Source of the DNA: an uncultured candidate division Zixibacteria bacterium
GTDB taxonomy: Bacteria > Zixibacteria > MSB-5A5 > RBG-16-43-9
Assembly (NCBI GenBank): GCA_963713865.1
Contig: OY970208.1
Location: forward strand, 2,272,001-2,336,000
Length of the DNA stretch: 64,000 nt
Direction: 5' to 3'
Below the pieces are notes generated by a model that had not been told where the DNA came from, made no database searches, and worked only from the letters and a program-made list of their open reading frames with translations. A program made the position numbers and the translations under genes. This document shows positions 12,014 to 34,065 of the stretch, in pieces. Every line of letters begins with the position of its first letter. Positions within the stretch are counted from its first letter, which is position 1.

Positions 12014-12742
12014 ATGAAAGACACAGTTTATTTTATCTCCGATGCCCATTTGGGTTCAAATTCTCTTGAAAGGGAAAAGCTGAAAGAAGAGAGACTCCTT
12101 CTTTTTTTAGAACAGATTAAAAAGGACTCTCAAGCATTGTATATCTTAGGTGATCTGTTTGAATTCTGGTTCGAATATAAAAATGTCATTCCTAAAAACC
12201 ATTTTCCTATTTTAATGAAGCTGAAAGAGATTACAGACCTGGGAATCCCCATAACCTATTTAGTTGGGAACCACGACTTCTGGCTGGGCGATTCCTTGAC
12301 CGAACAGGTAGGAATGAAAATAGTCAAACACCCGCTCTCCGTAGAGCATCAGGGTAAAAAAATCTATCTCATACATGGAGATGGATTAGCCAAAGAAGAT
12401 ATTGGTTACAGGATATTGAAAAAAGTCCTGAGAAATAAAATCAATATCTTTCTTTATAAATTGATACCGCCTGATATTGGCATCCCCTTTGCAAAAAAAG
12501 TTGCTTCTTACAGTCGAGATAAGACTCAAGCCAGGGACAAGGAATTTTTAGAGGATTATCGAGAATTTGCTAAAGAAAAAATTATAGAAGGGTATGATGC
12601 GGTAATAATTGGACACACCCACCAGCCCTGTTTTGAGGAACTGGATAAAGGGGTCTATCTAAATTTAGGCGACTGGTTCGAGCATTTCACCTACGGGAAA
12701 TTAAGCGAGGGAAAATTTTATTTGATGGAATATAAAACATAG
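12014..12742 (+). CDS. lpxH: UDP-2,3-diacylglucosamine diphosphatase
   Basis: FISDAHLG, LGDLFEFW, GNHD, HGD, GHTH, NLGDW metallophosphoesterase motifs; start at ATG 12014. Confidence 0.88.
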   Translation: MKDTVYFISDAHLGSNSLEREKLKEERLLLFLEQIKKDSQALYILGDLFEFWFEYKNVIPKNHFPILMKLKEITDLGIPITYLVGNHDFWLGDSLTEQVGMKIVKHPLSVEHQGKKIYLIHGDGLAKEDIGYRILKKVLRNKINIFLYKLIPPDIGIPFAKKVASYSRDKTQARDKEFLEDYREFAKEKIIEGYDAVIIGHTHQPCFEELDKGVYLNLGDWFEHFTYGKLSEGKFYLMEYKT

Positions 12743-12968
12743 GTAGGGGCGAGGTCTCCTCGCCCTATGACCGGTAGACCCATGTTGTTCCAATATGGGT
12801 TTTTATCCTTTTTGTGTAGGGGTGGGTTTCAAACCCACCCCTACAGCCCCTCGCAATTACAATTGGTAGGGGTACGGCGCACCGTGCCCCTACCTCCGAA
12901 AAGGTAGACACAGGGGCACACCCCGAAAAAATCGGGATTTCGCTACACTCAACAGGGATCTGCCCCTA
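12743..12968. repeat. Cluster of four GTAG-type REP palindromes between convergent genes
   Basis: GTAGGGGCGAGGTCTCCTCGCCCTA, GTAGGGGTGGGTTTCAAACCCACCCCTAC, GTAGGGGTACGGCGCACCGTGCCCCTAC, plus one interrupted by a CCCGAAAAAATCGGG hairpin. Confidence 0.8.
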
Positions 12969-13460
12969 CTTTTTCAAACTTCTCTTTAAATGTTCGATCA
13001 ATCCCCCATCTTCCAAAATCCCCATAACTATTTCCGGCAGAGGAGGGAAAGGAATTTTTCTATTTTCAGTTATAATCTCACCTGTAGCGTAATTCACAGT
13101 AATGATTTCCCCACCCTTTATCAAATCATAAGCCTCTTTGGACTGAACCAGAGCCAGCCCCTGATTGATTGCATTCCTGAAAAATATCCTGGAAAAAGAT
13201 CTAGCAATGACACAGGAAATCCCGGCAAATTTTAAAGAAGTAGCGGCTTGCTCCCTGGAAGAACCGCAGCCAAAATTGGAACCAGCCAAGATAATATCCC
13301 CTTTTTGAATTTTATTGGGAAATTCTTTATCATATCCTTCTAAGGCATGCTTAGCCATCTCCTGAGGATCCAAAATGGGAAGGCACTTACCCGGATAAAT
13401 CAAATCGGTATCAATGTTATCCCCGAATTTCCAGACTTTTCCCTTAATCTCTTTTAACAT
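12966..13460 (-). CDS. leuD: 3-isopropylmalate dehydratase/homoaconitase-type small subunit
   Basis: GDNIDTD, NFGCGSSREQA, SFSRIFFRNAIN, ILEDGGL. Confidence 0.85.
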   Translation of the reverse strand: MLKEIKGKVWKFGDNIDTDLIYPGKCLPILDPQEMAKHALEGYDKEFPNKIQKGDIILAGSNFGCGSSREQAATSLKFAGISCVIARSFSRIFFRNAINQGLALVQSKEAYDLIKGGEIITVNYATGEIITENRKIPFPPLPEIVMGILEDGGLIEHLKRSLKK

Positions 13461-13472
13461 ATTATTTTCACT

Positions 13473-15077
13473 TTATCTTTTTAAAAACTCCCTCGGGTCT
13501 GAAATCTCACCTTTGATAGCAGAAGCGGAAACAGTTGCCGGGCTGGCTAAATAAACTTCTGACTCAGCAGAACCCATCCTCCCTTTGAAATTACGATTAG
13601 TGGTTGCCAGACACTTTTCTCCTTTAGCCAGTATCCCCTGATGTGCACCTAAACAGGGACCACATCCTGGATTCAGCACTACACAGTTAGCCTCCAGAAA
13701 CGTTTTGATAAACCCCTTTTTCAAAGCTTCTAAATAAATCGATTTGGAGCCAGGCAGAACCAGCACCCTGGTATCTGGATGAACCTTTTTACCTTTTAGT
13801 ATCCTGGCTGCAATCTCCAGATCATCTATTCTGCCATTGGTACAGGAACCCAATAAAACCTGGTCTATTTTTATACCTTTAACCTCATCTATCGATTTCA
13901 CATTATCAACATTATGAGGACAGGCAACCTGTGGTTCCAATCTATCAATTTCAAATTCATATTCATTTTCATAGACAGCGTTCTGGTCAGCATAAATCGG
14001 ATGATAAGCTCTTTTAGCTCTGCCGTTAAGATATTTCTTGGTGACCTTATCAAAAGGAATAATTGCAAATTTTCCGCCCATCTCCATCGAAAGGTTAGCT
14101 AAGGTGAATCTCTCAGAAACGGACATATTCTCAACTGTATTACCATAAAACTCTACTGATTTATAATTTGCTCCTTCGACTGTCAATTTCCCGATTACAT
14201 AAAGGATTACATCCTTAGCATATACCCCCAGAGGAAGTCTGCCAAAAAGATTTAATTTGATACTTTCTGGGACCTTTAACCAGATTTTACCAGTAGCCCA
14301 GACTGCTGCCATCTCCGTTGCACCTACGCCAGTTGATAAAGCACCCAGACAGCCATAAGAGGTAGTATGTGAATCTGTTCCCACAGCTAATTCCCCCGGA
14401 AGTATATGTCCTTTCTCGATTACTACCTGATGACAGATCCCTTCCTTTATATCGTAAAAATTTTTTATACCCTGCTCTTTAACGAAAAGCCTGATCGAGC
14501 GGTGAGCTTCAGCCGTTTTCTCTGACTCAGCCGGAGCTCGATGGTCCAAAGGGATAACTATCTTATCAGGATTCCAGACTTTTGAGACTCCTATTGCCCT
14601 GAATTGTTTTATCACCAAGCCAGCATTGTCGTGGCTCATTGCTAAATCCGGTTCTACATAAACGATCTCCCCTACCTGAACCTCCTTTTTCCCTGCCTTC
14701 AGGCTTAACCCTTTCTGGGCGATTGTCATTCCCCTGTCTTTTATAAATCTTTTACTCATCTCTGGCAGATATAATTCAAGTTGGGCTAATTTCAAAACCC
14801 TGGGTTTCTCTAATAGATTATATTTCCTCCTCCATTTATAGAATGCCGCCTTGGAGATGGAAAGCTCCCTGCCAGCTTTAAGGTCATCTCCATGGATTTC
14901 CCAGAGCTCTTTTACCCTCTCAATACTATATTTAGGCAGAGCATACTTGAGGATTTTCTTTTTCCTTCTCCAGTAAGCCACCAGATAGGCTGGAACCCCC
15001 AGGACCTCCCCCATCTTTTTGTCTGTTTTATATTGAGCCTGAAGCTTAACCAGCTCTTCTTTCTTCGGAATTCTCAT
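13473..15077 (-). CDS. leuC: LeuC/HacA-type aconitase-family large subunit with about 115 extra N-terminal residues containing two HTH-like repeats
   Basis: DHR, GICHQV, DSHT, GSCTNGR, NPGCGPCLG, TTNRNFKGRMG; the usual start (MTIAQK) lies at about residue 117. Confidence 0.88.
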   Translation of the reverse strand: MRIPKKEELVKLQAQYKTDKKMGEVLGVPAYLVAYWRRKKKILKYALPKYSIERVKELWEIHGDDLKAGRELSISKAAFYKWRRKYNLLEKPRVLKLAQLELYLPEMSKRFIKDRGMTIAQKGLSLKAGKKEVQVGEIVYVEPDLAMSHDNAGLVIKQFRAIGVSKVWNPDKIVIPLDHRAPAESEKTAEAHRSIRLFVKEQGIKNFYDIKEGICHQVVIEKGHILPGELAVGTDSHTTSYGCLGALSTGVGATEMAAVWATGKIWLKVPESIKLNLFGRLPLGVYAKDVILYVIGKLTVEGANYKSVEFYGNTVENMSVSERFTLANLSMEMGGKFAIIPFDKVTKKYLNGRAKRAYHPIYADQNAVYENEYEFEIDRLEPQVACPHNVDNVKSIDEVKGIKIDQVLLGSCTNGRIDDLEIAARILKGKKVHPDTRVLVLPGSKSIYLEALKKGFIKTFLEANCVVLNPGCGPCLGAHQGILAKGEKCLATTNRNFKGRMGSAESEVYLASPATVSASAIKGEISDPREFLKR

Positions 15078-15094
15078 CTTAATATCTGATTATT

Positions 15095-15580
15095 CTAAGA
15101 GTGATTTCTTAAACTCTTTTTGAGCTTTCTGAATACCTCGCCCAGGCTGATGGAAACCACTTTTGTCTCTGCAAGGACCGGCATAAAATTAGTGTCTCCG
15201 GTCCAGCGAGGAACTATATGGATATGCAGATGATTAGCCACACCTGCACCTGAAACCTTTCCCAGGTTCATTCCTAAGTTTAAAGCTTCAGGTTTTAAAG
15301 TGGCTTTCAGGAGTTTAATGGAAAACTGTGTGGTTTTCATAAGGTCAGCCATCTCAGATTCAGTTAAATTTTCCAGTTTACCAGTATGCCGGTTCGGGCA
15401 AACCATTAAATGACCGGTGTTATAGGGGAAGCGGTTCATTATAACAAATGATTTCCCCCTCCGAAAAAGGATCAGGTTTTTCTCATCCTTTTTTTCTTTT
15501 AATCTTTTGCAGAATATACACCCCTTTTCTTTTTCCCCCAAGATAAATTTCCCTCGCCAGGGTGCCCAGAGTTTTTGCAT
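15095..15580 (-). CDS. HIT family hydrolase (Ap4A phosphorylase/FHIT-like)
   Basis: LWAPWR, CIFC, NRFPYNTGHLMV, HLHIHIVPRW. Confidence 0.92.
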   Translation of the reverse strand: MQKLWAPWRGKFILGEKEKGCIFCKRLKEKKDEKNLILFRRGKSFVIMNRFPYNTGHLMVCPNRHTGKLENLTESEMADLMKTTQFSIKLLKATLKPEALNLGMNLGKVSGAGVANHLHIHIVPRWTGDTNFMPVLAETKVVSISLGEVFRKLKKSLRNHS

Positions 15581-15672
15581 ATCCTAAAAGGATCCTTACT
15601 GGTCAAATTTTAAATTAATATACTAAATCGAAAAATATATTTCAATATCTTTTATAGAATATTTAAGTTCGT

Positions 15673-15720
15673 GTAGCGGAGGTTTTAAACCTCAGCGCCG
15701 AGCCCTGAAGGCTCGGCTAC
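15673..15720. repeat. Paired GTAG/CTAC REP hairpins
   Basis: GTAGCGGAGGTTTTAAACCTC..GCCGAGCCCTGAAGGCTCGGCTAC. Confidence 0.7.
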
Positions 15721-15775
15721 ACGATTTTACAGCATCAGCTCGGGCAGAAGTTGTACTCCTGCCCGTAATAAAGGA

Positions 15776-15916
15776 TTATTTGGATTTCACCTGACCGAAC
15801 ATCCCGAAAAAAGCGAAAAGACCAAAAAGTCCAAAAAGCCCTTCCAAACCACGAATCATACCTAAAAACCCCAAAAGCCCCAAAAACCCTAAATATCCTA
15901 AATTTCTTTTGTCCAT
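15776..15916 (-). CDS. 46-aa Gly/Phe/Leu-rich membrane microprotein (DUF3796-like N-terminus)
   Basis: Below the ORF-track cutoff; GAGGT RBS, then MDKRNLGYLGFLGLLGFLGMIRGLEGLFGLFGLFAFFGMFGQVKSK*. Confidence 0.75.
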   Translation of the reverse strand: MDKRNLGYLGFLGLLGFLGMIRGLEGLFGLFGLFAFFGMFGQVKSK

Positions 15917-16033
15917 CGGCTACCTCATTTATGAAAATTACCTCTTGTTTCTAATCATAGTACAACCCTTTCAGGGGCGCTAAAACTGTAGGGACAGAAC
16001 AGTGTTCTGTCCCCTTTTTCATAACTATATTTT

Positions 16034-16696
16034 TTAGGTACTCAATATCATTTCTTCTAATTTCTGAAGAGCTTTTTCTCCGGACTCTAAAACCTTTTTG
16101 TCTATAAGTTCAAAACTATCGCAAAAATAATGAAATATAACATTAAAATAATATCTTGAAAGCAGTAGACTTTCTTTCACATATTTAATACTGGGCCCTA
16201 TATCAAAAAGCAACCCTTCTTGTGATTTGGAAATCTTAGGTAGAATACCTGTATAGTTAGTATGAATGATTTTCGAAAGGTCCTTATACCATTTATTATA
16301 ATGCTTCTCCATCCTTGCTGTTGTTGCCTTATCGGAAATTCTCTTGTGTTTTCTATACTGTTCAGGTTCTTCAAAAAACATTTTATGTAAAGTATGATTT
16401 TGTTTTTCCAGATATTTCAGGTCAATTACATTTTCTATTAGGGCTCTTACAAGAATACCAGCTTCAAGTCCCAATCCAAGATTACAAAGGTGATGAACTG
16501 ACACAAATAATGAGAATGATTTTGTAAAGATTGCCTGTATAATGCCTTTGAAATCGGATTCAAATCTAATTTTCTTTTGGTCAAAAATGTTTAGAACATT
16601 ATTTATGTTATTAATTAACTCCAAATTGAGGTCGAATAAATCTTTATATTTCACATATACTACATTTTCTATAACAAAGTCTTTTTTCTCTATCAT
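16034..16696 (-). CDS. Hypothetical helical protein, DUF5677/HEPN-like
   Basis: EAGILVRALIE..IDLKYL and Y.DLSKIIH motifs; more AT-rich than neighbours. Confidence 0.6.
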   Translation of the reverse strand: MIEKKDFVIENVVYVKYKDLFDLNLELINNINNVLNIFDQKKIRFESDFKGIIQAIFTKSFSLFVSVHHLCNLGLGLEAGILVRALIENVIDLKYLEKQNHTLHKMFFEEPEQYRKHKRISDKATTARMEKHYNKWYKDLSKIIHTNYTGILPKISKSQEGLLFDIGPSIKYVKESLLLSRYYFNVIFHYFCDSFELIDKKVLESGEKALQKLEEMILST

Positions 16697-32339: not shown

Positions 32340-32837
32340 TTACATACCTTTCAGATAATTTAATAAACCTCCCTTTTCAGTTATCTCCAGTTCCAATCCG
32401 GAAAGTGGGTAACCGGTCATGCCTTTCCCTGTAGCTAAATTTTTAATCCCGCCCGATGAAAAATCTATTTCTAACTCATCACCAGTCTTAACGTTCTCGG
32501 ATATCCCCAGACATTCTAATAGAGGGAATCCTAAATTTATCGCATTGCGATAAAAAATCCGGGCAAAGGAATCTGCCACCACACAGCTTACCCCGTTTTC
32601 CTTTAAACATATAACCGCATGTTCACGGGAAGAGCCAGTGCCGAAGTTCTTGCCTGCTACGATAATATCACCCGTTTTTACCTGCTGGCTGAATTTTTCA
32701 AACCCGGGCACAAACTCCATCGCATGTTTTTTCATTTCCTGAGGGTCAGTTAAGGGGAGATACTGCCCATGATAGATCTGGTCAGTATCTATATCATCCC
32801 CAGCCACCCAGGCTTTCCCTTTAAATTTAGTCATCAT
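32340..32837 (-). CDS. Second, orphan LeuD/HacB-type small subunit
   Basis: GDDIDTDQI, NFGTGSSREHA, SFARIFYRNAIN; start overlaps the CDF stop. Confidence 0.85.
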   Translation of the reverse strand: MMTKFKGKAWVAGDDIDTDQIYHGQYLPLTDPQEMKKHAMEFVPGFEKFSQQVKTGDIIVAGKNFGTGSSREHAVICLKENGVSCVVADSFARIFYRNAINLGFPLLECLGISENVKTGDELEIDFSSGGIKNLATGKGMTGYPLSGLELEITEKGGLLNYLKGM

Positions 32838-34065
32838 CTTCTTTCTCCCCTTTAATCTTATCTTTCTTTCTTTCGCATTCCTGTTCGCAGGTTTTACATT
32901 CACCCTCACAGGGCTCTATATGGATTGTGATCTCAGACTCACCCAGTCTATCTTTAATATCATTTTCCAGATGGTCACACAACTTATGGGCATCTTCGAT
33001 CTTTATACCCTTGGGCACAACTAAATGCAGATTAACCAACCTCGAATCCCCTGTTCTTCTGAAAGTCAGATCGTGGAATTCCACGAACTGGTCAAAGTGC
33101 TGATTCAAGATCTCCAGGACTATTCTTTTCTCCTCCTGTCCCTCTTTGAAAAGCTCAGACTTCTCTTCCAAGAACCCCCCTCCTTCTTCTGGTTCAGTAT
33201 GGACAATCACGTCTGAATTTGGCAGAAGCAAAGCAACTTTTTCCTCTATCTGAATAGTGATTTGATGAGCTTTTTCTAAAGAACTGTCTTTTTCAAGCAT
33301 AACATTCATATCTAGAAAATAGTGACTGCCGGCTCTTCTCAGCCGTAATCTCGAGACGGAGCTGACCTGGGGAATTGATTGAATCATTTCTTTGATTTTC
33401 TGGTCTAACCCTTCTGGTGCCCGATCTAAGAGCACGTCTACTGTCCTCTTACCCAATTTCCAGGAAGCACGCAGGACCAATAAAGCCACACCCAGGGCTG
33501 CAAGCGGGTCAGCAACCGGTAAACCGATCTTGACAAAAATAAGTCCTAAGATCACCACTAAGGAACTAAAGATATCGCTTTGAAAATGCAAAGCGTCTGC
33601 TTCCAGAGCCTGGCTTTGATATTTTTTAGCCATCTTTGAGAGGGCTGTAGATCTGGAGATATCAATAATTATGGCGATTAACAGTACTATAAAACTGACC
33701 GGTAGTACTTTAATTTCAACTGATTTAAAGAAGATTCTTTCAAAAGACTTATAAATTATCCATGCGCAGGTTATCAGTAATAAAATCGCTTCTAAGAGAG
33801 CTGAGAGATTTTCAAATTTACCGTGTCCATAATGATGTTCGGCATCCGCAGGTTTATCAGACCGTTTTACCGTAAAATAAGTCATCCCGGCTGCCACTAA
33901 GTCTAAGGCAGAATGAGCCGCCTCAGAAATTATCCCCAAGCTCTGAGTGATAATACCTACAATAAGTTTGGTAAGAGTAAGAAAAATGGCAGCCAGAAGT
34001 GAGCTGAAAGCTACTCTTACTTTCTCCTGCGTTCCTTTTTTCTCAATCTGATTCAGATTTTCCAT
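32827..34065 (-). CDS. Cation diffusion facilitator transporter with duplicated C-terminal dimerisation domain
   Basis: EAAHSALD, HHYGHGKFE, ADALHFQSD; two ZT-dimer-like repeats ending VHTEP and IHIEP; Cys-rich tail. Confidence 0.92.
   Translation of the reverse strand: MENLNQIEKKGTQEKVRVAFSSLLAAIFLTLTKLIVGIITQSLGIISEAAHSALDLVAAGMTYFTVKRSDKPADAEHHYGHGKFENLSALLEAILLLITCAWIIYKSFERIFFKSVEIKVLPVSFIVLLIAIIIDISRSTALSKMAKKYQSQALEADALHFQSDIFSSLVVILGLIFVKIGLPVADPLAALGVALLVLRASWKLGKRTVDVLLDRAPEGLDQKIKEMIQSIPQVSSVSRLRLRRAGSHYFLDMNVMLEKDSSLEKAHQITIQIEEKVALLLPNSDVIVHTEPEEGGGFLEEKSELFKEGQEEKRIVLEILNQHFDQFVEFHDLTFRRTGDSRLVNLHLVVPKGIKIEDAHKLCDHLENDIKDRLGESEITIHIEPCEGECKTCEQECERKKDKIKGEKEDDD

Follow-up and report, generated by a model that had tools for sequence, protein, structure and literature searches.

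What is a putative nucleic-acid-binding head doing on a metabolic enzyme? The question is raised by a 64,000-nt stretch (the window) of the genome of an uncultured candidate division Zixibacteria bacterium (GenBank assembly GCA_963713865.1, contig OY970208.1, positions 2,272,001 to 2,336,000), in which an open reading frame (ORF) encodes a LeuC/HacA-type large subunit of the aconitase family behind an N-terminal extension with two predicted helix-turn-helix (HTH) modules. A sequence-only reading of this DNA had proposed a DNA- or RNA-binding trigger enzyme that couples iron-sulfur (Fe-S) or substrate status to gene regulation. Comparison of the relatives indicates that the HTH head is the constant part of the protein and that it is the enzyme part that decays, which is a new finding; a fusion kept near-universally, with its enzyme decayed in most members and its head preserved, points to a regulatory job.

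The N-terminal extension: spread and fold

The extension comprises 116 residues, close to the approximately 115 estimated initially. The matching NCBIfam enzyme models start at residue 117 or 118, and in the alignment with the solved isopropylmalate (IPM)/citramalate isomerase of M. jannaschii (PDB 4nqy/4kp1) the own start of the homologue, MTIVEK, lies opposite M117 TIAQK of the fusion; the residues upstream are therefore extra. When residues 1-120 were searched against a collection of 5.8 billion proteins, 329 proteins were obtained at E ≤ 1e-3 among 446 candidates. In the best 120 of these 329 relatives the extension is 60-92% identical; 119 of them, all but P0098, carry a precomputed PF00330 match, most are 530-545 aa long, and the source labels, where given, mostly name metagenome-assembled genomes (MAGs) of Zixibacteria. 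A search of 1.84 billion representatives without length limits yielded 111 matches, 49 at ≤1e-10 and 14 at ≤1e-30, with fused or partial proteins at the top of the list. The survey across genomes that the sequence-only reading had suggested covered the species-representative genomes of the window's phylum (n = 285): the extension was matched in 265 of them, in 194 of the 198 high-quality genomes and in 126 of the 130 genera, with a single match per genome in all but three cases and usually inside an open frame of ~500-620 aa, and neither of the two genomes of family f15 had a match. A pattern scan of genome contigs detected 214 encoding loci; among the best 80, the titles mostly read Candidatus Zixiibacteriota or candidate division Zixibacteria, besides some other MAG labels.

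Over codons 1-100, the window gene and its relative L033 share 47 identical codons, with 38 synonymous and 15 non-synonymous differences. Because the extension is conserved in nearly all surveyed genomes and its codon differences in this comparison are mostly synonymous, we regard it as a translated domain and not as the product of an over-long ORF. Of 131 sequences, only 8 have a methionine aligned to M117; an internal start is therefore not conserved. Short forms are rare (P0147, 106 aa, and P0159, 121 aa, each on a contig of ~58 kb). An origin of the head as a piece of a resident insertion sequence (IS) element was rejected, as the genome of the window has a single copy of the head domain and the gene shows vertical conservation.

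The two similar basic repeats with an HTH pattern that had been noticed in the extension were located at residues 5-42 and 50-88. Profiles of the two modules (residues 1-46 and 47-95) align to each other over 39 columns with an hhalign probability of 92.5% and an E-value of 4.8e-7, indicating that the modules are homologous and the repeat is beyond chance. In the AlphaFold2 model of the whole fusion (72-sequence alignment; mean predicted local distance difference test score, pLDDT, 90.2; predicted template-modelling score, pTM, 0.77) the head forms two three-helix bundles, with ten-residue block means of 88-94 over residues 1-90 except for 77 in the inter-module stretch 41-50; the pLDDT falls below 50 over residues 98-112 of the linker, and the head modelled in isolation adopts the same fold as in the full-length model. 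The same 72-sequence alignment holds 18 invariant columns, 12 of them within residues 4-99, including L32 and the third-helix residues Y35, W36 and K39 of module 1 and W82 and R83 of module 2. The composition is strongly basic, with 26 Lys+Arg per 105 residues and a net charge of +14.

The profile search and structure prediction recommended for the extension returned a sub-threshold HTH_Tnp_1 match and two HTH modules in the model, and the relatives extend this result. Scanned singly at E ≤ 0.01, 15 of 21 orthologous N-termini match HTH_Tnp_1 and 11 match HTH_23 (best E-values 4.5e-5 and 4.1e-6, respectively). The relative P0153 passes the Pfam cut-offs (HTH_50, 47.4 versus 27 bits; HTH_23, 36.1 versus 24.6 bits) and P0052 nearly does (HTH_23, 24.2 versus 24.6 bits). 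Structural comparison of module 1 with VIA-align gave a phage immunity repressor:DNA complex (Z 6.3, root-mean-square deviation 2.1 over 43 residues) and the DNA-binding domains of Reb1, NtrC4, Mos1, Fis and TyrR (Z 5.0-5.7, ~2 Å over 41-45 residues), and that of module 2 gave SANT-type domains (Z ~4), including those of CoREST and NCoR2. The top weak Foldseek rows for the head were tandem homeodomains, the bipartite transposase heads of Mos1 and Tc3, and DUX4; the ESM Atlas matches (best score 0.83), which we treat as a lead, all fell in HTH_23-type clusters, and a PDB sequence search with the N-terminal profile gave chance-level matches (E ≥ 0.011). Judged by the modelled fold and the Pfam matches of its relatives, the head is an HTH of the homeodomain-like/HTH_23/HTH_Tnp_1 kind.

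Distant relatives of the head occur in other arrangements: P0148, P0149, P0167 and P0184 carry three to eight (or more) tandem HTH_23-type modules in proteins of up to 1706 aa, and P0166 is fused to TFIIB repeats. The relative P0099 bears the precomputed Pfam accession PF28406.1, and a recent Pfam family may already cover part of the fusion.

The aconitase-like body: intact in the window, decayed in most relatives

The enzyme part of the window's copy looks intact. Pfam Aconitase (PF00330) covers residues 134-523 (5.8e-102; 342.5 bits, cut-off 28.7), and PRK00402 (591.9 bits, cut-off 385), hacA_fam TIGR01343 (565.2, cut-off 385.7) and IPMI_arch TIGR02086 (547.5, cut-off 410.15) all match above their thresholds. 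At the equivalog level the cut-offs were missed (TIGR02083 LEU2, 513 versus 610.65; NF040615 HacA_Meth, 501.6 versus 550; TIGR00170 leuC, 243.5 versus 560.25), and the AcnA, AcnB and mitochondrial aconitase models stayed far under theirs (TIGR01341, 110.7 versus 945). By these scores the body belongs to the archaeal-type IPM isomerase (IPMI)/HacA large-subunit family at subfamily level, outside the LeuC/HacA equivalogs. The three [4Fe-4S] cysteines (C412, C472 and C475) and the motifs SHDN, GTDSHT, EMG, CTNGR, CGPCLG and TNRNFKGR are all retained, as had been read from the window, and the cysteines, GTDSHT and TNRNFKGR align with their counterparts in 4nqy. Like the M. jannaschii isomerase (4kp1/4nqy), with which it aligns end to end over residues 117-530 (472.7 bits), and the homoaconitase HacA (4kp2), the body shows the GSCTNGR, CxxC, (G)xDSHT and NRNFxGR motifs and goes with a separate LeuD-type small subunit. 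Unlike these enzymes, the fusion has its additional N-terminus, misses the equivalog cut-offs and resides in a genome without a LeuA-type synthase.

This intact form is, on the sequences compared, a minority form. We aligned 130 fused relatives of 470-600 aa (from P0001-P0147) to the window protein and found the head (residues 1-105) to be 52-92% identical, compared with 17-94% for the aconitase-like domain. Of the 131 sequences, 61 have the full set of three ligand cysteines, each with at least 74% enzyme-domain identity; the remaining 70 show at most 48% identity and miss at least one cysteine. Within the 61 intact sequences, whose heads are 63-92% identical, SHDN, GTDSHT, NLSMEMG, CTNGR, CGPCLG, TNRNFKGR and DHRAP are 90-100% conserved, and only the motif positions L329, S330, K498 and A181 fall below 100%. 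Within the 70 others, only 1-30% of the sequences retain the Asp, Ser, His, Asn and Arg residues at the catalytic positions. The columns that are at least 90% conserved number 52 of 105 in the head and 259 of 418 in the body for the intact group, 77 and 85 for 45 mid-divergence sequences, and 32 and 12 for the 25 most divergent ones.

The forms were also counted in two sets of loci. Among 31 genomes picked for long contigs (1-4 per family, 19 families), eight are intact (families f1, f2, f3, f4 (window's order) and f6), three keep the three cysteines and lose other catalytic motifs (cysteine-only; f12 and one f17 genome), and 20 are degenerate (f5, f7-f11, f13, f14, f16, f18-f20 and one f17 genome). 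The second set, biased towards relatives of the query, consisted of the 72 complete genes from the best 80 of the 214 loci (six ORFs truncated at contig ends were left out, as were two fragments) and contained 23 intact genes, 2 cysteine-only genes and 47 that lack a cysteine. In the cysteine-only loci L043, L044 and L047 (f12, f17), SHDN, DSH and NRNF are lost and LeuD lies downstream in two of the three; they are candidate Fe-S-binding, non-catalytic intermediates.

A maximum-likelihood tree of the head together with the neighbouring HIT protein described below (21 rows) requires four changes of the label 'degenerate', at least three of them forced by well-supported branches; hence, the decay of the enzyme happened several times. 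The synonymous rate (dS) was saturated in most pairs, and ratios of the non-synonymous rate (dN) were used instead. In six cysteine-only or degenerate pairs the body/head dN values were 0.36/0.06, 0.53/0.10, 0.36/0.09, 0.38/0.15, 0.34/0.10 and 0.60/0.23 (2.5-6x), versus 0.08/0.07 and 0.12/0.14, about equal, in intact pairs; where dS was finite, dN/dS was 0.13-0.41 (three rough values). Both these rates and the ESM Atlas show the decayed domain to be a maintained full-length frame: in the Atlas, the most degenerate example examined (residues 115-483 of P0064) resembles aconitase clusters at a score of 0.91, and 30 of 30 matches carry PF00330. As most members lack the cluster ligands, the proposed coupling to Fe-S or substrate status is ruled out as a family-wide mechanism.

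The HIT and LeuD partners and the metabolic context

The most constant partner of the fusion is a HIT-family gene. It immediately precedes the fusion, on the same strand, in 21 of 21, 72 of 72 and 9 of 10 loci, i.e., in 30 of the 31 sampled genomes and in all 72 further loci, and the sole exception (L132) stems from a 65%-complete MAG. According to the ORF calls, the HIT stop codon overlaps the start codon of the fusion in 11 of 21 loci; the two are separated by 5-22 nt in 6 others and by 130-903 nt in the remaining 4, the most divergent ones. H117, H119 and H121 (HxHxH), as well as C21, C24, H57 and H65, are invariant in 21 HIT sequences. The nearest solved chains are a HIT-domain protein (6af2, 1.5e-41) and the Rv2613c-type diadenosine tetraphosphate (Ap4A) phosphorylase (3ano/3wo5, 1.3e-40), from which the HIT protein is set apart by an NCBIfam ATP adenylyltransferase score below the equivalog cut-off (149.7 versus 290 bits). 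We know of no link between Ap4A-phosphorylase-type HIT enzymes and aconitase-family proteins.

The presence of LeuD follows the state of the body. A LeuD gene is found downstream of the fusion in 10 of 21 loci, comprising all seven intact loci, two cysteine-only loci and one degenerate locus, and in the second set in 18 of 21 assessable intact loci versus 1 of 46 non-intact ones; in at least one of the three intact exceptions LeuD sits behind an inserted gene. The sequence-only reading had described a HIT-leuC-leuD unit, and the flanking genes were indeed confirmed on the same strand (Table 1), whereas it had missed how constant the HIT gene is and that the fusion extends across the phylum.

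Table 1. Features of the fusion gene and its transcription unit; positions are those of the window.
Feature	Position	Strand	Basis
Whole fusion ORF, 534 aa	13473..15077	-	ORF listing and Pfam/NCBIfam matches
HTH module 1, residues 1-46	14940..15077	-	AlphaFold2 helices 6-16, 19-26 and 30-39; helix 3 with YLVAYWRRKK
HTH module 2, residues 47-95	14793..14939	-	AlphaFold2 helices 52-62, 65-71 and 76-85; helix 3 with AAFYKWRRKY
Linker, residues 98-116	14730..14786	-	Length and sequence vary among relatives
LeuC/HacA-type aconitase-family large-subunit domain, residues 117-534	13476..14729	-	All cluster ligands and catalytic motifs
HIT-family gene, 161 aa, Ap4A-phosphorylase-like	15095..15580	-	Pfam HIT, 2.3e-16
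LeuD-type small subunit, 164 aa	12966..13460	-	LEUD_arch, 204.8 bits (cut-off 108.95); Aconitase_C, 1e-20
Promoter-like TTGAAA-17-TATATT	15617..15645	-	Consensus scan, 10/12 matches; consensus match only

In the window, the HIT gene ends 17 nt upstream of the fusion ORF and the LeuD gene begins 12 nt downstream of it, and the site scan found no terminator-like site on their strand between the three genes. The promoter-like site in front of HIT is likely the start of the HIT/fusion/LeuD transcription unit; judged by eye, TTGAAA...TATATT-like elements precede HIT in several relatives too. A palindrome, AAGGATCCTT, between promoter and HIT start is confined to the window's genus and has four genome copies on the searched strand. 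An Rfam scan of 12700-16200 gave zero matches at E ≤ 1. Further upstream, a perfect hairpin, GGGACAGAACA-GTG-TTCTGTCCC (15991-16013), lies between the HIT promoter and a 220-aa ORF on the minus strand (16034-16696) for which NCBIfam has no match at E ≤ 1e-6. The 14-mers in the hairpin arms have ~20 genome copies and other palindromic 14-19-mers 15-20 copies, and together they look like repetitive extragenic palindromic (REP)-type repeats.

The window's genome (one contig, 2.72 Mb, 94% complete) encodes three LeuC-type large and three LeuD-type small subunits, so that besides the fusion there are two further, unfused LeuC-type proteins, a point that the initial reading had asked to be checked; all three large subunits keep the ligand cysteines. 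One split LeuC/LeuD-type pair (L006, C1:2180000-2194000) is located between a eukaryote-type citrate synthase and an NADP-isocitrate dehydrogenase, adjoins 2-oxoglutarate:ferredoxin oxidoreductase and is, by this context, probably the aconitase of the tricarboxylic acid (TCA) cycle. An orphan LeuC-type large subunit (C1:1607353-1608645) adjoins a TrpB-like gene, and an orphan LeuD-type small subunit (window 32340-32909, minus strand; LEUD_arch 184.3 bits) is flanked by RlmD and a CDF cation transporter; the two orphans may pair. The specificity loop of the LeuD small subunit reads C-L-P-I and presumably differs from both the IPMI and the homoaconitase loops.

That neither leuA nor leuB is nearby had also been noted, and for leuA it applies beyond the window. 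No HMGL-like gene (PF00682; LeuA, CimA and homocitrate synthase type) and no IlvD gene (PF00920) was found in the 94%-complete genome, each of them being matched in 14 of 14 control genomes; a KARI gene and a second Iso_dh gene are present, with both Iso_dh genes outside the window. Four further intact-type genomes of the window's order likewise yielded no HMGL-like gene (0 of 4), and the f6 intact-type genome has one. Given these gene absences, the intact enzyme probably has no part in the textbook leucine pathway.

Function of the fusion

We lean, a little beyond even odds, towards a trigger enzyme, a regulator that binds nucleic acids and has an aconitase-fold domain as its sensor or enzyme. 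Because relatives keep the HTH pair and lose the cysteines, the catalytic motifs and LeuD, the role appears to be non-catalytic and probably regulatory; and since the aconitase fold and the HIT neighbour are kept along with the head, DNA binding by the head is the most likely conserved job of the family, with RNA binding less likely. In such a regulator, one polypeptide would combine a basic bipartite HTH head, a flexible linker and a LeuC-type [4Fe-4S] hydro-lyase large subunit that, in the window's organism, would pair with the LeuD encoded just downstream. The fusion would be co-transcribed with the HIT gene and probably translationally coupled to it; the head would bind DNA sequence-specifically, and the body, acting as sensor or scaffold whether or not it is catalytic, would control or scaffold this binding. 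In the window's order, where the body still appears to be a LeuCD-type hydro-lyase, substrate or cluster state could modulate binding as in a trigger enzyme, and the cysteine-only forms of f12 and f17 suggest an Fe-S-sensing intermediate.

Several results weigh against this interpretation. On the window protein itself both Pfam families remain under their gathering scores (HTH_Tnp_1, residues 69-101, E 0.0019, 18.8 versus 24.1 bits; HTH_23, 14.2 versus 24.6 bits), Foldseek against the PDB gave no match for the head at E ≤ 1e-3 (best 0.079), all VIA-align Z-scores (≤6.3) lie below the caution line of the tool for helical domains, and three-helix SANT/Myb-like modules can also bind proteins. An operator was sought by counting 8-10-mers on both strands, with up to one mismatch, in the 260 nt that precede HIT in 20 loci, but the counts did not clearly exceed those of shuffled controls: the best coverage was 16, 11 and 8 loci versus 12-15, 8-9 and 5-6 in the shuffles, and the best k-mers were A/T-rich and promoter-like. 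Finally, in the window's own lineage the body is as conserved as the head (dN 0.08 versus 0.07), and the enzyme role may dominate there.

Some of these points lend themselves to another explanation, which we rate as improbable but worth keeping in sight: the HTH pair would be a protein-protein or localisation module that tethers the LeuCD-type enzyme, or its decayed scaffold, to HIT, RNA polymerase or the nucleoid and exerts no control over gene expression. The near-invariable upstream HIT gene and the stop/start overlap in 11 of 21 loci are what would be expected for co-made subunits, the CoREST and NCoR2 SANT domains among the neighbours of module 2 are protein-binding, and the missing operator motif fits as well. 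Yet the third helices carry the basic/aromatic W-R-R-K pattern typical of the DNA-reading helices of HTH_23 and HTH_Tnp_1, the head is highly charged, and module 1 has its closest structural matches among DNA-bound domains.

A post-transcriptional regulator following the logic of IRP1 or CitB, with the dedicated basic head contacting RNA, seems quite unlikely. Every family and fold match of the head is to DNA-binding HTH domains, the Rfam scan found no element in or around the operon, and the cluster switch on which IRP-type RNA binding depends is missing from most relatives; these observations outweigh, in our view, the precedent of aconitases as RNA-binding moonlighters, the very basic head and its unusual constancy across the phylum, which might suit a conserved RNA target. 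Slimmer again is the chance that in the window's lineage the protein is a plain metabolic LeuCD-type hydro-lyase, with the head an inherited appendage of little current function. The intact catalytic motifs, the adjacent LeuD, the 56%-range similarity of the body to the solved IPM/citramalate isomerase and the equal dN of enzyme and head in intact-type pairs would fit such an enzyme, but the head has remained well conserved inside the intact group, its codon differences are mainly synonymous, the non-conserved internal methionine implies that the enzyme is made only with the head, and the genome lacks LeuA-type synthase and IlvD, both of which are needed for the leucine pathway. That translation simply begins at M117, where an AGGGGA stretch just precedes the ATG and canonical LeuC proteins start, with the upstream frame open by chance, can be dismissed given the protein-level conservation in the phylum, the excess of synonymous differences, the scarcity of M117 among the relatives and the confident fold of the extension.

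The preferred reading, a regulator with an aconitase-fold domain, can be taken further in a speculative form to which we give a low probability. The window's protein would then be the founding member of a class of aconitase-fold transcription factors spanning the phylum, in which the HTH head reads DNA and the LeuC-derived body, with or without an Fe-S cluster, senses a small molecule; the window's lineage would represent the ancestral enzyme-and-regulator state, and f12 and f17 a pure Fe-S-sensor state. A tricarboxylate is one candidate for this ligand; another is a dinucleoside polyphosphate on which the adjacent Ap4A-phosphorylase-like HIT enzyme would act.

Known systems offer partial parallels. 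IRP1, AcnA/AcnB and CitB are moonlighting RNA-binding aconitases, four-domain monomers whose opened active-site cleft binds the RNA and which lack a dedicated HTH, and IRP2 is catalytically inactive. The Zixibacteria protein would resemble them as an aconitase-superfamily member linked to regulation, and its path from enzyme to non-enzyme recalls that from IRP1 to IRP2; its body, however, is of the two-subunit LeuC type, with the swivel domain encoded by a separate gene, and it carries a tandem HTH head. Trigger enzymes with built-in DNA-binding domains are PutA (ribbon-helix-helix), BirA (winged HTH) and NadR (HTH), and an N-terminal DNA-binding-type domain joined to an enzyme domain in one polypeptide is likewise predicted for the fusion. 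In contrast to them, it involves another enzyme family and another HTH type, and its enzyme half is decayed in most lineages while the DNA-binding-type half is constant. The bipartite heads of Tc1/mariner and IS transposases (Mos1, 3hos/5hoo; Tc3, 1u78) also consist of two tandem three-helix modules with basic third helices, a weak likeness (Foldseek E ≥ 0.079, Z ~4-5), but the fusion has no transposase catalytic domain, is present in a single genome copy and is vertically conserved across the phylum. It thus differs from trigger enzymes and IRPs in enzyme family, in its dedicated tandem HTH and in the repeated decay of its enzyme half. We found no description of this architecture in full-text literature searches, judged from listings and the beginnings of abstracts, and none had been known to the sequence-only reading.

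These genes are currently named 3-isopropylmalate dehydratase large subunit in their sources, which is probably wrong for the majority of the family because it lacks every catalytic residue. To our knowledge, the phylum Zixibacteria has no cultured model, and the gene provides a clean sequence marker for it. As it is single-copy and near-universal in these bacteria, it likely controls something central. Through its constant pairing with HIT, a connection between the chemistry of nucleotide alarmones and an aconitase-fold sensor becomes open to testing. Should the head prove to bind DNA, the fusion would be the first member of the aconitase superfamily to carry a dedicated DNA-binding domain, and one orthologous gene would show the passage from enzyme to trigger enzyme, to Fe-S-only sensor and to pseudoenzyme regulator.

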